DNA from: Sphaerodactylus townsendi
Taxonomy: Eukaryota
Length of the DNA stretch: 64,000 nucleotides
Direction: 5' to 3'
Assembly (NCBI RefSeq): GCF_021028975.2
Contig: NC_059431.1
Span: forward strand, 30,566,001-30,630,000
Below, piece by piece: positions 8,074-17,193 of the stretch. Under the pieces are notes generated by a model, which was not told the DNA's origin, did no database searches, and saw nothing but the letters and a program-made list of their open reading frames with translations. Position 1 is the first letter of the stretch. Each line of letters begins with the position of its first letter. Both the position numbers and the translations under genes were made by a program.

Positions 8074-9317
8074 TAAATAGTTGCTCTTTTCTAAACCTTC
8101 AACAGGTCAACATCCATTTTGATGCAACTGCATCTGCTGTTTCCCAGCACTGAATTTGTCTTTTTCACAGGGGCAGCAGGGCATGCTGCATGGGTTGGCT
8201 GGGAACCTTCTGAGAGAGATTAATATGCTATTTCCGCATCACCCAGCATGCTTGTCACAAATCAACACAAATCTACACCCCACACCTTGTCCTATGTGCT
8301 GTAGCCCTCCCATGGATCTGACCCTGAGCTGGGCCCAATCAATCTTGCTGGCAGCCCCAGTGAGCATTATGCAACATAGTGCATTCCTGTTCCAAGTCCT
8401 TGGGATTCATGAGAGAAAAGAGATGAATTTAAATCACCAGTTTGGAGGGCAACAAAATCACACTTCCTCTGTTTGAATGACACAGCTGGTATTGCCTGCA
8501 AACCAATTCACAGAAGTTAACAGCTGAGAAGGGGTGTTTGCTTACATAAACTTCCCACTGTGCACCGCTTTCTTCTTTTCACACTACTGTCATGCTCCAT
8601 GAAAGTTAACCTTACCCAAGCACTAAAAAGGGAGAATATGATGATAGTGCATTAACTATAATGAGAATCATTTCCCAGGACAAATCATTCCTTCCATTTA
8701 ACCAGGAAAAAAATGGACAGCTGCTTGTTTGCCCTACCGGTATATTATGCAAATATGCAATTTCCACCTTTCCTTATCAGGCTATGACAATCACATGCAC
8801 TCCCGTGCCCACAGTTCAAGTTTGCAAGGAGCCACCCAAGACACACGGGGAAGGAAGGAGCTGTGGTTGCCTACATACAGTTGTGGATTCAGGCCCTACA
8901 ATCTTCACAAAATGCCTGGAAACCCCTTTCCCTGCCTGAGATCCCAGAGAGTCACTATTAGTCAGAACAGGCAGTGCAAAGCTAGATGAACCAATGGTCT
9001 GACTCTGTCCAAGGAATCTTCATGTGTTCATCAAGAAGAAAACAAACAATTAAATGAAAAGTGACATTTGTGTCTTGCAAACAGGGGTCCATTCTTCACA
9101 GCACAAATAAAAATGTCCTGAGGACAGTAAAAGAAGCGTTTTGGGGAGAAAGCGCGGCCGCGGCTTACCCGCAGGCCGCCGTTGCGGGCCGGACGGGACC
9201 CGGCTCAGGCGGCGCCGCCCGGTCAGGGCAATGGCGTGGCCTCAGAGCACGGTCGCGCATGCACGTTGGCCGGGCTCTGGCAGGCCGCGTCATATGCAGG
9301 CGCCAGCAGGCGCTTGC

Positions 9318-9323
9318 ATATAA
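9318..9323 (+). promoter_or_regulatory. Candidate TATA box of the element's 5' module
   Basis: atataa in an otherwise very GC-rich 5' terminal region, upstream of gag. Confidence 0.45.
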
Positions 9324-10145
9324 GGAGGCGGCCTCGTGGGCGAGCCCAGTCTCGCCCAGGACGCCGGAACGCGAAGATCGTCGCTGGATCGCTCAGCCGG
9401 GTGGGTCCTTACAGAAGACGGGGTCGGGTCTTCATTCACTGGGCTTCACAACGCCCCCCCCCCCCCGCGCGCAACTTGCGGCTGCGGCTTTCTTCTCCGG
9501 CGGCAGCCGGGTAAGCCGGTGGCGGGGCCTTGGGGGCTTCCCCGACAACGCAGCTTTGCGGGGCCTCCACTGAGCCTCCCCTACTCCCCGGACGGCATTG
9601 GTGCAGGATTTTCGGGCCGAGCCGGGCCTTGCGCCCCCCCCCCCGCGACATTAGAGGGCTCCCCCCCGGCGTTGCCCGCATGTTTTTTGGCTGGAGGAGC
9701 GGCGCCCGTTCACCCGGCCGACTGGTCGGGTCCCTGGAAGGGACCTCAAAGTAAACGGGGCGTGGGAGTTTCCCCCGCCTGGCATCCGCCGCTCCCGCCC
9801 TCAGCCCGGCGGCCCGGCAGACGCGGCCCAGCTGGGGTTGGGGAGGGGACCTACTTTGGGGATCCCCCGAGTGGTGCTCTGCGGCAGGGGCGGATCTTTA
9901 CCCTTCCACTGGTTTCTACTTCATCGGCGGCTCGTGGCAATATCACGCGCGGTAGACTGGCGCGAGGTTAACCGCAGCTTCTTTCTCAATTTCTCCTCAG
10001 ATATTTAGCACTGCAGTGCTTGGCGCAGGTGGCTCGCGAGAGTCATAGGTTGGTGGGTTGAGGGCTCAGGTGCTCCTAGTGGGTCGGTGTCCCCCAACTC
10101 AGCTTAGTATTTTCTGTTCACTGTCCCAGTTTTCATAACCGGGCA

Positions 10146-11651
10146 ATGGCACCCAAGAAAGGGGAGCAGCGTGCGCCCTCCACTAGTGGCCGGGGCACTA
10201 GGACTAGTGCCCGGCGCGCCGTGGCCTCTAAGGGTGACCGGCAGCGGGCGGTGGGTGAGGCGGCGTCCCGTAAGGCCAGCACGAGAGCAGGCAGTCCCGC
10301 CACGGGGCAGAGCAAGGGGCGCTCTTCCAGCACCACAGCCCGGAATAAGGCCACCCCGGCCCATTCAGGGCCCAAGACCGCTTCCAAGGCCCAGGCCGCG
10401 AAACCTGCACCTAATAGGGGCGCGGCAGGCACAAGAGGGGCCCCTAGTTCCAAGTGGCCTAGGCGCTCGGATGCTGAGCTGTCCCAGCGGCCCCCCCCGT
10501 CAGGGGCTGCAGATGTCAGCAGCCTCATCTTTAGGAATTTGGCGGACACCTTTAGCCAGCTGGCCCAAGGGGCACCTGGGGGGCCTGCTGCCTCCTTTGC
10601 ATCTACGTCAGCGGCCCCGCAGCGCAGGGTGGGACCCCCGCGGGGGCAAGGGAGTGGTACTTCCTTGCAGGTTGTCGAGGAGGAGGGGGCGGTGACCTCG
10701 GCATCTGAAGGGGAGTCTGACGAGAGGGGGTCAGTCGTTCACCCACCGCGTAAGAAGAATCGGAAGTCGCGGAGACGTCGGTCGTCACGCCGCAGAGACT
10801 CTTCATCTTCATCGAGTGAGTATTCCTCAGACGAGGACTCCCTTCATGAGGATGGCGCCTTTTGGGAAAACAGGGCAACCATCCCCATGCTGCCACCTTG
10901 TCTCAGCAGTCGCAGGGATAAGAGCCTGGGCTTTCCGGAGGGGGCCACCCCTCCCCCCGCCCCCTTTTCGGGCACCAAAACCGTTAAAAATCCCCCAGGT
11001 CGCCATCTCACCAAGAAATTGAAGGAGAGGGCACTCAATGGCTACTACGTGGATGTGTTTGACTTCATTCGCCCAGGGTCCTCACCAGGAACCACTGGCC
11101 CCTCCCCGGCCACCGCCAAAAAAGGGAGGAGGGTGGAACGGTCATTTGACAACTGGCTTTCTGGTTTTGGGGAGTACATGGCCTTGATTGCGGCGGCTTA
11201 CCCGCTGAGGGCCTGGCAGCTGGGGGCCCACCAGTGTCACGTTTTGAGAGCCAGGGTCATCGGGGGTGACTTGGCGGCGATTACTTATGATGAAGAGTGC
11301 CGCAGGGCGGTGTCTGACACCAGTAACATCAGGTTGGACACGATCAATAGTGAGGCCTGGACGACCATGGTCCAGCCCTTCGCACGTTCCCAGAGTCAGG
11401 GTTTTAAAAGGAGGGGCAATTTCAGGGGCGATGGCCCCCGCCTGGTTTGCTGGGAGTATAACCAGGGCAGGTGCCAGAGACAAAAATGTAAGTTTGAGCA
11501 CTCATGTGAATCCTGCTTCGGTCCGCACACCAGGCTGGCCTGCCCGAAGGGGAGGAAATTACAGCCCTTTCGTGGAGCCCGGCCCTCTGCCAACTCAGTT
11601 CCTAGGAAGGATGGGGGGTCAGGCCCGCCTGCAGCACCCAGTTCTGCCTAG
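10146..11651 (+). CDS. gag: Gag-like ORF1 (501 aa)
   Basis: ATG in good context (gcaATGg). Low-complexity N-terminus with a basic/Ser-acidic tract, then a DIRS/Ngaro gag-like core (GYYVDVF..SFDNWLSGF..YDEECRR). C-terminal Cys/His finger CWEYNQGRCQRQKCKFEHSCESCFGPH..C. Confidence 0.85.
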   Translation: MAPKKGEQRAPSTSGRGTRTSARRAVASKGDRQRAVGEAASRKASTRAGSPATGQSKGRSSSTTARNKATPAHSGPKTASKAQAAKPAPNRGAAGTRGAPSSKWPRRSDAELSQRPPPSGAADVSSLIFRNLADTFSQLAQGAPGGPAASFASTSAAPQRRVGPPRGQGSGTSLQVVEEEGAVTSASEGESDERGSVVHPPRKKNRKSRRRRSSRRRDSSSSSSEYSSDEDSLHEDGAFWENRATIPMLPPCLSSRRDKSLGFPEGATPPPAPFSGTKTVKNPPGRHLTKKLKERALNGYYVDVFDFIRPGSSPGTTGPSPATAKKGRRVERSFDNWLSGFGEYMALIAAAYPLRAWQLGAHQCHVLRARVIGGDLAAITYDEECRRAVSDTSNIRLDTINSEAWTTMVQPFARSQSQGFKRRGNFRGDGPRLVCWEYNQGRCQRQKCKFEHSCESCFGPHTRLACPKGRKLQPFRGARPSANSVPRKDGGSGPPAAPSSA

Positions 11652-13272
11652 CCCCACAGACCTTGACTCGTTACACCGTATCGCTCTTACTCCTATTAAG
11701 ATCACCCCATTAGCTGCTTTACTTGCAACCTATCACAACCGGGCGGCCGCTCAGTTTCTTTTGAGCGGTTTTTCTCAAGGTTTCCGCATCCCCTACACGG
11801 GCCCTCGTACGGCGACTGTCTGCGGCAACTTGAAATCGGCTCGTGAGTTGCCCAGAGTTGTGGCCGCCAAGTTAGCAAAGGAGGTGGCCGCCGGCCGCAT
11901 GGCTGGCCCCTTCTCCGACCCGCCCATCCCGAACCTTAGGGTCTCTCCTCTGGGGGTGGTCCCCAAGAAGGCCCTGGGCGAGTTTCGCCTCATACACCAT
12001 TTGTCCTACCCGCGGGGTTTCTCCGTTAACGATTTTATTGACCCCAAGCTCAGCTCAGTGAGGTATGCATCACTGGACCATGCCATCTCCTTAATCAGAG
12101 CATGTGGCCTGGGAGCGATGCTGGCGAAGTGTGACATTCAGTCTGCTTTCCGCTTGCTGCCCATTCACCCCGACGACTTCTGCCTATTGGGCATTAAATT
12201 CGATGGTCATTGGTTCATTGACAAGGCCATGCCAATGGGCTGCTCGATAGCTTGCGCGGCTTTCGAATGCTTCAGCTCTTTCCTGGAGTGGGCTGCCAAG
12301 GGCCGGGCAGCCAGCCCTCATATCACTCACTATCTGGACGATTTTTTGTTTGTGGGCCGGGCCAGTTCCAGTGAGTGCCTGGACAGGCTTCATACATTCG
12401 AGGCCCTGACATCCGAGCTGGGGGTCCCCCTTGCAGGGGAGAAGACAGAGGGGCCGTCCACCTCTCTAGCCTTCTTAGGGATTACCCTTGACACTGTGCG
12501 GGGCACGTCCAGCCTGCCCATGGATAAGGTCAATAACCTGAATGCGGTCTTACATGATATGGCCAGCAAGCAGAAATGCACCCTTAAGGACGTCCAGGTC
12601 GTGTTGGGGCACCTGAATTTCGCTTGCCGGGTCATTGCCCTGGGCAGGCCTTTCTGCGCCAGATTGGCACAGGCCACGCGGGGAGTTAAGGCTGCCCACC
12701 ACTATATTCGGGTCACCGCGGGCATCAAGGCCGACCTGGCGGTGTGGCTAGAGTTTCTCAGGCATTTCAATGGGACTTCTTTGTGGCAAGCTAGATTCAC
12801 ACCAGAAGCCACTCTACAGGTACACTCTGATGCTTCAGGCAGTCTCGGGTTGGGAGTCTATTTCAGGGGCAGGTGGTGCGCCCAACGTTGGCCGGTGGAG
12901 TGGGAGGCTACGGGCCTCCTCCGGGACCTCACCTTCCTGGAGTTGTTCCCCATTTTGCTCGCTGTATATCTGTGGGCCCCTCACTTTGTGAACCGCAAGG
13001 TGGTGTTCTGGTGTGATAACCTAGCCGTAGTGCGGGTCATCAACCGTCAGTCTTCACGCTCTGAGTGGGTCATGCGCTTGGTCAGGAGGTTCGTGGCGCT
13101 TTCTTTGATTAACAACATCTCTTTTGTGGCCCAGCATGTCCCAGGAACCGACAACGAACTGGCGGACGCTCTTTCTCGCTTTCAGATGGTGAGGTTTTGG
13201 CGTTTGGCTCCCGGGGCGTGTCCACACCCGGACCCCTTCCCACAGGAGCTGTGGGATCTTGGCAACACCTGA
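11266..13272 (+). CDS. pol: Reverse transcriptase / RNase H (ORF2); true start uncertain (ATGs at 11287 and 11611)
   Basis: RT motifs KCDIQSAFR, MPMG and YLDDF. RNase H motifs SDAS, LELFPI, WCDN and ADALSR. The frame is uninterrupted and +1 relative to gag. Confidence 0.93.
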   Translation: MTWRRLLMMKSAAGRCLTPVTSGWTRSIVRPGRPWSSPSHVPRVRVLKGGAISGAMAPAWFAGSITRAGARDKNVSLSTHVNPASVRTPGWPARRGGNYSPFVEPGPLPTQFLGRMGGQARLQHPVLPSPTDLDSLHRIALTPIKITPLAALLATYHNRAAAQFLLSGFSQGFRIPYTGPRTATVCGNLKSARELPRVVAAKLAKEVAAGRMAGPFSDPPIPNLRVSPLGVVPKKALGEFRLIHHLSYPRGFSVNDFIDPKLSSVRYASLDHAISLIRACGLGAMLAKCDIQSAFRLLPIHPDDFCLLGIKFDGHWFIDKAMPMGCSIACAAFECFSSFLEWAAKGRAASPHITHYLDDFLFVGRASSSECLDRLHTFEALTSELGVPLAGEKTEGPSTSLAFLGITLDTVRGTSSLPMDKVNNLNAVLHDMASKQKCTLKDVQVVLGHLNFACRVIALGRPFCARLAQATRGVKAAHHYIRVTAGIKADLAVWLEFLRHFNGTSLWQARFTPEATLQVHSDASGSLGLGVYFRGRWCAQRWPVEWEATGLLRDLTFLELFPILLAVYLWAPHFVNRKVVFWCDNLAVVRVINRQSSRSEWVMRLVRRFVALSLINNISFVAQHVPGTDNELADALSRFQMVRFWRLAPGACPHPDPFPQELWDLGNT

Positions 13273-14168
13273 TTGCTGAGGGAGTGTTGGCATCGATTGC
13301 ACCTGCCACGCGGCGGGCGTATCAAGGAGCCATTAGGGCCTTCATTTCCTTCCACCAGTCGCAGGATGGACCGGCTGAGCCATTGTTTGGAGATACATCA
13401 CTCCTGCGCTACCTTGCCCATCTCCGTTCACAGGGTCGGGCAGCCAAGACCATGCGGCTGCATTTGGCAGCAGTATCCTTTTGCTGTAAGGCCTCTGGCA
13501 TTAATGACCCTACCGCCTCTTTCCTGACCAGGCAGGCAATTAAAGGATGGGGCAGGACCAGCCCCCGCAAGCCGGATGGGAGGCGCCCAATCTCATTAAG
13601 TTTGCTGTCCCGCCTGGCGTCAGCCTTGCCCCGCATTTGCTCCTCCGGTTTTGAATCGGTACTTTTTCGGGCCACTTTCAGCCTGGCCTTTTTCAGGGCT
13701 TTCCGGCCCGGGGAACTCGTGAGCACGTCATGCAGCAGCTCCAGCTCCAGGCCCCTCCGGGTCGGGGATGTGCAGGTTATGGGCGCCACCCTGGCCATCA
13801 CACTGCACCAGTCCAAAACTGATCAAGGGGCCAGAGGGTCTTTCATTACCATGCAGGAATCCACAGCGCAGGGCCCCTGCCCAGTGGCTGACACTGTGGC
13901 GTACCTTGCAGTTCGCCCCAATCGGCCTGGACCTCTACTTTTACATAAGGATGGGTCGTTTTTGTCTCGCTACCAGCTTATGGCAGTCTTCAAGTGCTGC
14001 CTGTCTGCATTGGGAGAGTCACCCTCTTCCTATGGCCTTCATTCCTTCCGGATCGGGGCGGCATCCACGCTTGCCGATCTGGGGGTCCCTGCCAGCAGGG
14101 TCATGGACGTTGGGCGCTGGAGGTCAGGGGCATTCAGGACTTACATCAGGCCGCTTACCCCGGCATGA
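13197..14168 (+). CDS. Tyrosine recombinase (ORF3); first ATG only at 13452
   Basis: Full catalytic set R (AFRPGEL), K (SKTDQ), HxxR (HSFRIGAAS), W (GRW) and Y (FRTYIR). The N-terminal core-binding segment (ASIAPATRRAY) lies upstream of the first ATG. Confidence 0.93.
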   Translation: MAFGSRGVSTPGPLPTGAVGSWQHLIAEGVLASIAPATRRAYQGAIRAFISFHQSQDGPAEPLFGDTSLLRYLAHLRSQGRAAKTMRLHLAAVSFCCKASGINDPTASFLTRQAIKGWGRTSPRKPDGRRPISLSLLSRLASALPRICSSGFESVLFRATFSLAFFRAFRPGELVSTSCSSSSSRPLRVGDVQVMGATLAITLHQSKTDQGARGSFITMQESTAQGPCPVADTVAYLAVRPNRPGPLLLHKDGSFLSRYQLMAVFKCCLSALGESPSSYGLHSFRIGAASTLADLGVPASRVMDVGRWRSGAFRTYIRPLTPA

Positions 14169-14218
14169 CGCGCCTACCTAGTTACAGGCCCTCATTTCTT
14201 TTCTCTTAGTTTCTGCAG

Positions 14219-14790
14219 GTGCCGGAAAAGTCGTCTGGGTGGTGGGCCACAGTATCGTCTACTGGGCTTCCCAGTACGCTGCATCGTCAGGCTGGAGTCA
14301 CGACCTGGGCCTCCGGCACCACCTGCACGTTTTCTGGTTTGGTTTCAGAGGCATGCGTTGGCATGACCTCCTTCCTCTCCTCTGGACCAAGATTCGAGCC
14401 TTTGGCCCTCCACAAGCTTTGATCATCCAACTCGGGGAGAACGACATCCCTGCGATTCGGCGGGTGGAGCTGCTCCAGTCAATCATCAGAGACATTGGCA
14501 TCATACACCGCCTCGCCCCTAAGACGACTATTTTCTGGTCCCACCTTCTGGAACGCCGCGTTTGGAGGGGGGCGCTGGACCCCCGCCGGGTGAACCGGGC
14601 AAGGGAAAGGACTTGTAGGGCCGTTGCGTGTTTTGTACTCGGGCTAGGGGGGCGGGTGATTCCGCACCACGACATTTCGTTCGGTTTAGAGGCTTTGTTC
14701 AGGGCAGATGGTGTTCACCTGACACAGTGGGGCATGGATCTTTGGTTACATGACCTGAGGTCGGGTTTGTGCGATTGGCTGGACATTTAG
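14219..14790 (+). CDS. SGNH/GDSL-type hydrolase (ORF4), probably a spliced 3' exon
   Basis: Blocks VWVVGHS (Ser codon at 14251), RGMRW, QLGENDI and DGVHL. The frame is open from 14182, but the first ATG (14353) is downstream of the Ser. A polypyrimidine tract with AG at 14208-9 and 14217-8 precedes it. Confidence 0.82.
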
Positions 14791-15170
14791 GAGGCATTTG
14801 GCGGGAGCAGGGGTGGTTCCCACCCCGCTCTCTGGCGGGTTGCGCATGGGGGGTGATCGTTTTAGTGAAGGGGAGCTACGGGAGCTCTTCTGGTAACACC
14901 TCCATAAGAGGTGAGGGCGGAGCAAGCCGAAGGTTGGGACGCCCGGCAGGGGCTACCAAGGCTTGCGCCCTGGCAGCAGGTTGGAACAGGCACCAGAAAG
15001 GGGTCTATCGCTCATCTGGCAGATCCTGATCCAATCTGACCTTCATGCTCAATTCCTCCAGCAGGCGGGCTGAGGAATTATTTAACTCTGGGGGACAGCA
15101 CTTGTGCTGCCCAGATCCTTTGATCCCCCCCATGCTGCGCCAAGTTTTTGCTTCCAATTAATGTCTTGCC

Positions 15171-15176
15171 AATAAA
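15171..15176 (+). terminator. Polyadenylation signal in the element's 3' module
   Basis: aataaa ~110 nt from the 3' end, followed by GT/T-rich sequence. Confidence 0.55.
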
Positions 15177-16215
15177 TATCTCTGGCTATGGCCAAATTGT
15201 TTACCCACTATAAGTTGTCATGCGTTTTATTGTGGTCAAATAGTCGGGGTTGCATGAGCCACCTGGTTCCCGCCTCGGCCTGCAAACTCCACACACCTTT
15301 TTTGCCAAGAAGTCTTCAGGACGTTTCTGCTCAACTCATCGCATTTAGAAAATGCTAAACTAGCAATCTTTTTTCTCACCATCCCCGGAAAAGGGGGAGC
15401 TGAGTACACAGGTACATTGGGTATATGGTGGAACCAACTGTTATTATATTGAGATATCAATATAATTTAGAAGTTGATGTGTTTTAGCTAAGCTCGTGCG
15501 GTTGAGCTTCTTTTCTTTGACTTTCACTTCCTGGCTACTGAAAGATGTCAGCAGGATAATTATGAAACAGAAAGGAGCCAACAACACGGAAGGGGGAGTG
15601 AGAAGAAAGGTATGTATTGCAATTTGAGGGAATGTGAAGGTTGAAGCTGGGTCGGCTGGCTATGGGTGGAAGGAAGATGTCCAGGGCAAAGCTGTGCTCA
15701 CTGATAAATGTGCCCTGCTCTGGTGGTGAACCAAATTAAAGTCACACTAGAAGTGGTGTTGCTTGCCGTGGAGAGAATGGAAAGTGAAAGTAGGGCTTGA
15801 GAAAATATGTCTGTACAGGAAATCTTGCTGCAATGGACATTTGCCCCTGCTGTGAAGTAGGCACTTGGTGTGTCATCAGCCCTGGTGTTTAATCAGCTCC
15901 CCTCACTCAAAAATGAGATTTTTCTACTGAAATGGCTGATTACAGCTAAGTCACCAATATTCTGCACAAACTGATATTTTAGGAGATAAGATGAACCTCC
16001 AAAAGCCTTTTTTTCTGATCAACCATATGTCTTACTTTTGACGTGGAGGCACCATAATAGTAATATTTAGTGCAGGAACTAGATTTCTTAACAACCTCAG
16101 CTTGCAGACTGAGACCAGGAAAACAATGAGGGAGAGAAGAGGAAGGAGAACAGCAGGACAAAGGAAGGAAACACATGGAGAAAATGAAAAATAACTGCAG
16201 GTTAGGAGCAGGTTG

Positions 16216-17193
16216 GCGAGGCACCTGTGGGACCCTGAGAGCTGGAGTGAAAGATCTCTATTAGCAACTTGAAGCTGAAAAGATAACTGTGAGACTGTTA
16301 CACAAACTGATAAAGCAAGAAAGAAAAGGCCTGATAGGCTGCGGAACCTGTACAACTCTACTGTTAAACTGGTAGAAACCCCTTTGTAACCAGTGTCTTC
16401 CCTGTTTGGTTTTAGGTAGCCACATTCTGATTCTCCCAGGCTGTCAATGATTCAAGGTGGGAGGGGGTAAAATCATGAGTACGGTCTGTTCTGCTGCTCA
16501 GTGTTATTGATTCTGTGTCTTTGCTCTACTGCATCAGTTTTATCTCTGGTAAATTTAAATTTCTGCTTAGTTTTAGGGGGGCGGCTTTCCTTTTTTAATA
16601 ATGATTTTTATTAAGTTTTTATGAACTACAAGTTGCTAAAACAAATACAGAGAACAAAATAGTGAACCAATCGGGTTAGCTTTCACGTCGGATTTAACTG
16701 GTTCTGCGAGGCACCTGTGGGACCCTGAGAGCTGGAGTGAAAGATCTCTATTAGCAACTTGAAGCTGAAAAGATAACTGTGAGACTGTTACACAAACTGA
16801 TAAAGCAAGAAAGAAAAGGCCTGATAGGCTGCGGAACCTGTACAACTCTACTGTTAAACTGGTAGAAACCCCTTTGTAACCAGTGTCTTCCCTGTTTGGT
16901 TTTAGGTAGCCACATTCTGATTCTCCCAGGCTGTCAATGATTCAAGGTGGGAGGGGGTAAAATCATGAGTACGGTCTGTTCTGCTGCTCAGTGTTATTGA
17001 TTCTGTGTCTTTGCTCTACTGCATCAGTTTTATCTCTGGTAAATTTAAATTTCTGCTTAGTTTTAGGGGGGCGGCTTTCCTTTTTTAATAATGATTTTTA
17101 TTAAGTTTTTATGAACTACAAGGCTGCTAAAATAACACAGAGAACAAAATAGTGAACCATCGAAGGCTTTCACGGCCGGATTTAACTGGTTCT
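16216..17193. repeat. ~490-bp tandem duplication (16216-16705, 16706-17193)
   Basis: Both units start gcgaggcacctgtgggacc. They look identical over ~420 bp and differ by scattered indels in the last ~70 bp. Confidence 0.9.

Follow-up and report, generated by a model that had tools for sequence, protein, structure and literature searches.

The element at positions 9149-15285 of the window, the 64,000-nucleotide (nt) stretch of Sphaerodactylus townsendi DNA analysed here (NC_059431.1, positions 30,566,001 to 30,630,000), is a tyrosine recombinase (YR) retrotransposon of the Ngaro family whose enzymes appear to be expressed through alternative splicing from gag and through a shift of reading frame. 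From its open reading frames (ORFs), the candidate sites within them, the phase of these sites and their conservation in other copies, we infer a programme that is probable as a whole: splicing from a donor at 10815 to the recombinase or to an SGNH hydrolase, together with a likely +1 ribosomal frameshift into the reverse transcriptase (RT). Taken part by part, gag–SGNH splicing is highly likely, gag–YR splicing likely and the frameshift moderately likely.

Under this programme, one promoter in the A repeat (TATA at 9319) and one gag ATG would give rise to four proteins. Unspliced RNA would yield Gag and serve as the genome, and a single shift on the same RNA at CCC-TTT-CG would yield a little Gag-Pol, that is, Gag joined to RT/RNase H. 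Splicing from 10815, the sole conserved donor, would place the N-terminal 223 residues of Gag in front of either the recombinase or the hydrolase. The calculated products are Gag of 501 amino acids (aa), Gag-Pol of 1041 aa, GagN-SGNH of 416 or 413 aa, and GagN-YR of 567, 550 or 530 aa for acceptors 13135, 13186 and 13246, respectively (GagN being the N-terminal part of Gag). An RNA whose stop codon lies in the last exon escapes nonsense-mediated decay; because each predicted spliced RNA has one intron and its stop in the last exon, it should escape. We speculate that recombinase and hydrolase may be recruited to the RNA or the particle through their common basic, Arg-rich leader.

Membership in the Ngaro retrotransposons follows from domains, gene order and repeats. 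The element is GC-rich and set in AT-richer host DNA, with borders fixed by sister copies and by the empty-site joint 9148 to 15284, found in four of four sequencing runs. It has four unbroken frames: gag (10146-11651), RT/RNase H (to 13272, closing 99 nt past the LSR motif of RNase H), recombinase (13113-14168) and SGNH (14182-14790). A Pfam scan of these ORFs found RT/RNase H and a tyrosine recombinase, with neither a DDE integrase nor a protease, and returned no adenine methyltransferase match at an expectation value (E) of 0.1; in gag it gave a weak zf-CCCH_10 match (E 0.006, below cut-off). The order gag, RT/RNase H, YR, SGNH is the tetrapod form and is identical to that of DIRS-53_XT (PMC9210276). 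Split direct repeats of the form A1..B1-A2-B2 (A-B-A-B) occur in 22 of 101 stretches, including the close sister L032; the window copy has A and B only, and the A2-B2 part of its sisters is missing. Assignment to the DIRS-like class was rejected, since terminal inverted repeats were not found and direct repeats are present instead. The A repeat also contains, by self-match, an imperfect palindrome (9282-9334) that surrounds the TATA box. The features are as follows, a slash marking the cut at a splice site.

9149..9375, plus strand: A repeat (5' end), TATAA at 9319-9323; aligns with internal A2 in the sister copies L032 and L033
10146..11651, plus strand: gag ORF of 501 aa, its N-terminal half disordered, basic and Ser-rich, its C-terminal half conserved and bearing a Cys/His knuckle
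10813..10821, plus strand: candidate 5' splice site CGA/GTGAGT, cut after 10815, phase 1; conserved, and the exon end of model P0034 on copy L122
11565..11573, plus strand: gag-frame CCC TTT CGT, a candidate +1 ribosomal frameshift site; the +1 frame is that of RT
11572..13272, plus strand: RT/RNase H frame past the proposed shift (open from 11248); RVT_1 E 1.1e-9, weak RVT_3
13108..13135, plus strand: branch-like ATTAAC (holding a YR-frame stop), pyrimidine tract and candidate phase-1 acceptor CAG/13135, the first AG past the branch-like motif
13113..14168, plus strand: tyrosine recombinase frame, first ATG 13452; Phage_int_SAM_4 E 3.2e-6, Phage_integrase weak
13166..13186, plus strand: candidate YR acceptor CAG/13186, phase 1; join point of models P0001 and P0011/P0023
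13226..13246, plus strand: candidate YR acceptor CAG/13246, phase 1; absent in several groups of copies
14182..14790, plus strand: SGNH hydrolase frame, Ser 14251, first ATG 14353; Lipase_GDSL_2 E 9.2e-7, slightly under the curated cut-off
14191..14219, plus strand: pyrimidine tract and tandem candidate phase-1 acceptors TAG/14210 and CAG/14219; exon start of model P0034 on L122
14833..15285, plus strand: B repeat, AATAAA at 15171, from comparison with sister copies

Candidate splice signals between gag and the SGNH hydrolase

A preliminary description of this stretch had proposed that one gag exon is spliced, in phase 1, to alternative 3' exons encoding YR, SGNH or RT. All of its donor, acceptor and ATG coordinates and phases were reproduced: the donors after 10254, 10815 and 11487 and the acceptors 11660, 13186, 13246, 14210 and 14219 are all in phase 1. 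Its caveat that some of this agreement could be chance is borne out. A phase-2 GTRAG is not possible within the ORF because it would create a stop, a phase-0 GTRAG is absent in 78% of 2000 synonymous resamplings of gag, and every Gln CAG of the RT frame is automatically a phase-1 acceptor for YR. Because phase agreement is weak evidence, conservation across copies was tested instead; cross-family conservation, unlike phase agreement, goes beyond chance. The same resampling shows that gag (10146-11648) has seven phase-1 GTRAG where 1.9 are expected (P 0.0025); one of them is conserved and the excess is unexplained.

The comparison set comprised 100 other copies from the same genome, 45-100% alike in SGNH. 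They came from 20 stretches (drawn from 40 DNA matches) and from 80 copies hand-picked, with a preference for those lacking stops, among the best 150 of 2861 SGNH candidates. Together with the window they form 27 groups at 80% SGNH DNA identity, 13 of which have at least two copies; between groups, the SGNH DNA is 42-76% alike. The groups have common ancestry, so the counts given here are not independent events. Scores for splice sites are simple counts of motifs and pyrimidines.

The donor at 10815 reads GTGAGT in 67 of 73 alignable copies and in 18 of 18 groups. The codons that carry it are AGT or GGT, then GAG, then TAT, TAC, TTG, TCN or TTC; the residues (S/G-E-Y/L/S/F) vary while the six bases stay fixed, and the Ser codons adjoining the donor vary as well. 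Only four of 113 residue-conserved gag columns use a single codon in all groups (89 copies, 15 groups): GAG 10818 within this donor, and CCC 11565, TTT 11568 and CCC 11583. The other two gag donors of the preliminary description are not conserved: 11487 is found in 6 of 80 copies, all from the window's own subfamily plus one close copy, and even the close copies L033 and L037 are without 10254. A candidate intron in the 5' leader (CGG/GTAAGC, donor after 9510; acceptors 10001 and 10130) was also rejected; it is present in the window copy and partly in L037, and other groups are without it. The segment that 10815 would join to the enzymes is the disordered N-terminal 223 residues, not the whole of Gag.

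The SGNH frame has a matching acceptor. As previously described, its first ATG (14353) lies past the codon for the nucleophile Ser (AGT, 14251), and an in-frame TAG stands at 14179. The tandem acceptors are likewise maintained in position and phase: of 94 copies in which the GHS motif is intact, 89 have a phase-1 YAG with a pyrimidine tract ahead of SGNH, and the acceptors found are distributed 145/7/3 over phases 1/2/0, with a branch-like motif upstream in 70 copies. They stand at -35, -38, -41 or -44 from the catalytic Ser, in steps of three and mostly outside coding constraint, and a second acceptor often follows 9 or 12 nt further on. The tract at 14210 is the richest in pyrimidines (16/17) of any YAG in the element. 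Both donor and SGNH acceptor thus keep a single phase and a degree of conservation that protein constraint does not explain, whereas the YR signals described below are only partly separable from constraint on RNase H.

Public gene models contain the predicted joints. GagN is joined to SGNH in Zootoca (nine sequences in two clusters, and P0032), Podarcis (P0008, P0009, P0040, P0045) and Paroedura (P0027, P0028, P0170), and to YR at a 'DG' equivalent to 13186 in Eublepharis (P0001, a patchwork model) and Podarcis (P0011, P0023). On the sister copy L122, model P0034 matches at 100% over residues 1-30 and 31-280; its exon 1 ends at GTGAGT and its exon 2 starts at the SGNH acceptor. At Zootoca LOC132592812, isoform X1 is gagN-SGNH and isoform X2 reads through gag. 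To our knowledge, NCBI names isoforms only where there is transcript support.

Several points weigh against gag–SGNH splicing. On its exon side (CGA), the donor matches the consensus poorly. In-frame ATGs, whose presence in a family consensus would by the preliminary description refute the splicing proposal, occur upstream of SGNH in 28 of 94 copies (13 of 22 in group F0) and are missing from the rest; in some F0 copies one-base indels in the tract break the frame of the upstream ATG and the acceptor stays intact. Model P0039 pairs the SGNH acceptor with another donor further upstream, passing over the conserved GTGAGT, and the Zootoca read-through isoform has G-S, not G-E, at the join, so the donor there is not GTGAG. 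Gene finders may merely choose the best consensus sites. Of 150 representative proteins, 118 could be scored, and a gag-like leader, by the rule applied, is present in only seven of these; many of the others are amphibian models with differing low-complexity leaders.

Further searches on the transcript side listed no RNA run that carries the element. The contigs of the four sequencing runs resemble genomic DNA (even cover, empty-site joints), so the finding that none of the 15 joints listed, of 113, falls at a predicted splice site is no evidence either way. No spliced and reinserted copy was found among the best 40 of 194, the best 40 of 64 and 20 matches to donor-spanning queries, in a search biased towards full copies. 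The one match to end near the donor, in L131, extends 11 nt past it, and L132 and L133 represent ordinary deletions or insertions.

A candidate frameshift motif ahead of reverse transcriptase

For RT, the evidence points to a +1 shift within gag. Approximately 100 nt ahead of the RT domain, 53 of the 59 copies examined have a frameshift-like motif, which invariably lies in the gag frame. Its TTT is constant (53/53); the codon ahead of it is CCC in 47 copies, TCC in four, TCT in one and ATC in one, and the codon after it is CGN in 51 and CAA in two. The six remaining copies still have TTT, three of them with an altered next codon. Counted by group, CCC is found in 14/14 and TTT in 15/15. Apart from 11568, none of 25 Phe columns in RT and none of the other four in gag is restricted to a single codon. 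Downstream of the motif, a stop occurs within 40 codons in 5 of 56 copies in the +1 frame versus 42 of 56 in the -1 frame. The arrangement is that of the influenza PA-X site, UCC_UUU_CGU, which shifts +1 (PMC3498833): UUU_CG stands in the zero frame, conservation is at the nucleotide level and the downstream ORF is in +1. The CCC at 11583, which is likewise fixed in all groups, may belong to a frameshift stimulator.

There are also observations that count against the shift. In 41 of 56 copies the +1 frame is open ahead of the motif as well, which means that an open frame does not by itself locate the site. Most copies here have CCC, and changing UCC to CCC lowers PA-X shifting by 40-70% (PMC3498833). 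In L138, a distant degenerate element, the motif was not found.

It is also possible, but unlikely in our estimation, that SGNH and YR are spliced as proposed and that RT is translated by reinitiation after the gag stop or from a separate start, CCC TTT CG being an RNA element for packaging or priming. The conserved RT residues, which begin at 11671 in the window, start approximately 20 nt past the gag stop in all groups, and this reading would accommodate both L138 and the second invariant CCC. Against it, no ATG near the RT start is common to the families. The statement that the downstream ORFs lack usable ATGs needs correction for the RT frame of the window, where upstream ATGs exist at 11287, 11290, 11431 and 11611, none of them kept across families. 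The motif is moreover always in the gag frame, Pro/Ser swaps retain its CC, and the +1 frame is open from the motif to RT, all of which favor the frameshift.

Splicing to RT, the part of the preliminary description that made all three enzymes alternative 3' exons of gag, is improbable, and it is here that the proposal is probably wrong; for SGNH and YR, through the 10815 donor, it is supported by conservation and by the lizard gene models. The window has a phase-1 CAG at 11660, and one Zootoca model, P0013, which counts against the programme proposed here, joins gagN to RT. However, the 11660 acceptor is present in one of 15 groups, no phase-1 YAG ahead of the first conserved RT residue is found in more than three of the 15, and the P0013 join removes residues kept in 13/14, 17/17 and 17/18 groups. 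Splicing would also leave the invariant CCC TTT CG unexplained; the conserved +1 motif fits RT better.

Candidate acceptors of the recombinase frame

The YR frame opens within the end of RT/RNase H, and an open phase-1 acceptor is available in 66 of 68 scorable copies; only six of the 68 have an upstream Met. The acceptors 13186 and 13246 had been noted previously and are in phase 1, as claimed, whereas 13135 had been overlooked; any of the three may serve the window copy. The Gln codon at 13186 is CAG in 14 of 14 groups. The sole open acceptor is 13135 in F6, 13186 in F0, F10, F11 and F23, and 13246 in F2. In groups that rely on one acceptor, a YR-frame stop lies just ahead of it (16 nt before 13246 in F2). 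In 13 of 16 groups this stop falls within a branch-like TRAY and the first AG downstream is a phase-1 acceptor 16-25 nt on, the exceptions being F9, F12 and the degenerate F20; stop and acceptor shift together between groups. The first ATG, 13452, does not lie past the N-terminal domain, as had been thought: it is residue 114, inside the last ten residues of the SAM-like match (60-123), and a start there would still lose nearly all of the domain.

The evidence is less clean than for SGNH. Because the YR signals lie over codons for RNase H residues (ADxLSRxQ, INNI), their conservation may be partly protein-driven, and CAG makes up 75% of Gln codons; both facts detract from the argument for gag–YR splicing. 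Among other codons fixed in all groups, a Trp of the overlapping YR frame accounts for CTT 13258; GAC 12133, AAC 13114 and CCA 13141 are fixed too, and 13141 is unexplained.

A degenerate, distant Ngaro element on a metagenome contig (L138:5560-5690, 43% RT identity) has LSRFQ followed by CAG/ATG, which opens a DGE recombinase frame. A metagenome scan with 72 pattern matches yielded one locus; within the present genome, no more distant clade was found using P0108 at E 1e-40. The proposal that the recombinase acceptor is ancient in animals may hold, because it is also present in L138.

How YR retrotransposons express overlapping ORFs that lack starts is an open question; the current conjecture, according to a quotation in a 2026 paper, is that ribosomes shift frame to enter YR. 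Poulter and Butler (2015) made such a proposal, as quoted in PMC13003380 section 3.4. Applied here, a programmed -1 frameshift from the RT/RNase H overlap would supply YR, and splicing would be confined to SGNH or be incidental. In nearly all scored copies the YR frame is indeed -1 to RT and overlaps its end, and the YR acceptors coincide with RNase H codons. Nevertheless, we consider this improbable. No strict X_XXY_YYZ is common to the 16 groups, relaxed matches are scattered, and the overlap is only approximately 40 nt in F2; the stop shifts jointly with the branch-like motif and the acceptor, and models of two lizard lineages share one 'DG' as the gagN-YR join. Gag–YR splicing remains our preferred reading. 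Least credible of all is that the sites are due to chance or protein constraint, YR and SGNH being made from internal promoters, near-cognate starts or reinitiation and the models being gene-finder artefacts: the partly forced phase, the upstream SGNH ATGs and the alternative donor of P0039 would fit, but the GTGAGT kept through residue changes, the one-phase tract and YAG in groups so divergent in SGNH DNA, and the F0 indels that spare the acceptor would not.

Known systems and further observations

The family is known, and its expression programme is likely undescribed. Spliceosomal introns were reportedly found in some YR elements by Goodwin and Poulter in 2004. In Xenopus, DIRS-53_XT and DIRS-54_XT (PMC9210276) likewise have gag, RT/RH, YR and SGNH and A1..B1-A2-B2 repeats, and no methyltransferase was found; that paper contains no 'splic', 'intron' or 'frameshift', proposes no expression mechanism and gives the hydrolase 'no proven function'. 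The portion of PMC5009743 examined names neither DIRS nor Ngaro. In the passages of the open literature that were searched (including PMC7192593, PMC9341512, PMC3783388, PMC8547959, PMC3266345, PMC6681497 and PMC4495291), we found no splicing model and no PA-X-type site for Ngaro elements.

The closest parallels come from viruses and from another retrotransposon. In murine leukaemia virus (MLV), the SD' RNA, which encodes P50/P60, uses a gag-internal donor to make an in-frame fusion of N-terminal Gag with a domain of the integration enzyme (PMC10496198); in contrast to the proposed Ngaro splicing, by which the complete recombinase and hydrolase would chiefly be made, full MLV integrase still comes from Gag-Pol and P50 is accessory. 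The Ngaro frameshift candidate shares with influenza A PA-X (PMC3498833) the zero-frame YCC_UUU_CGN and a downstream ORF in +1, and resembles the amalgavirus UUU_CGN (PMC5052127). Unlike PA-X, it mostly has CCC rather than UCC and stands at a retrotransposon gag-pol junction. PA-X-type sites are known from viruses and ASXL genes, and none was found for retrotransposons in the literature searched. The ZfL2-1 esterase ORF1p (PMC3905857), which binds membranes, also combines an SGNH domain with an Arg-rich Gag-like N-terminus; there, both lie in one ORF, whereas Ngaro splicing would build that architecture as a second isoform beside Gag.

It is possible, at somewhat less than even odds, that these features make up an overlooked retrovirus-like programme in Ngaro elements, combining alternative gag splicing, as the source of the recombinase and a membrane-binding hydrolase, with a PA-X-type +1 Gag-Pol shift, a YR acceptor that may be ancient in animals and SGNH exons repeatedly donated to lizard genes. 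Under the splicing proposed here, recombinase and hydrolase would share a Gag-derived leader, which matters for their biochemistry; many 'uncharacterized' two-exon SGNH gene models of lizards would be transposon transcripts; and host genes would have a route to capture of the hydrolase exon.

Host-gene models do contain this exon. P0002 and P0004 terminate in the element's SGNH exon, and the models that include it are P0002/P0014, P0003, P0004/P0005 and P0178, among them a ZNF318-like gene in Eublepharis, a Lacerta gene and a Rhinatrema SPRYD4 isoform (by name only). This suggests repeated capture by host genes via the strong acceptor. Seven further proteins (P0024, P0025, P0035-P0037, P0047, P0050) of 1309-3112 aa have two to six tandem SGNH domains akin to the element's hydrolase, and P0024 has five annotated isoforms; they are possibly products of a domesticated hydrolase gene in geckos. 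P0086 has a 394-aa gag-like leader and SGNH in one ORF on a 1677-nt Logan contig and, should the run prove to be RNA, would represent a spliced transcript. Downstream of the element, 16216-17047 is a tandem duplication with a 490-nt period and 100% identity, either recent or an assembly artefact.

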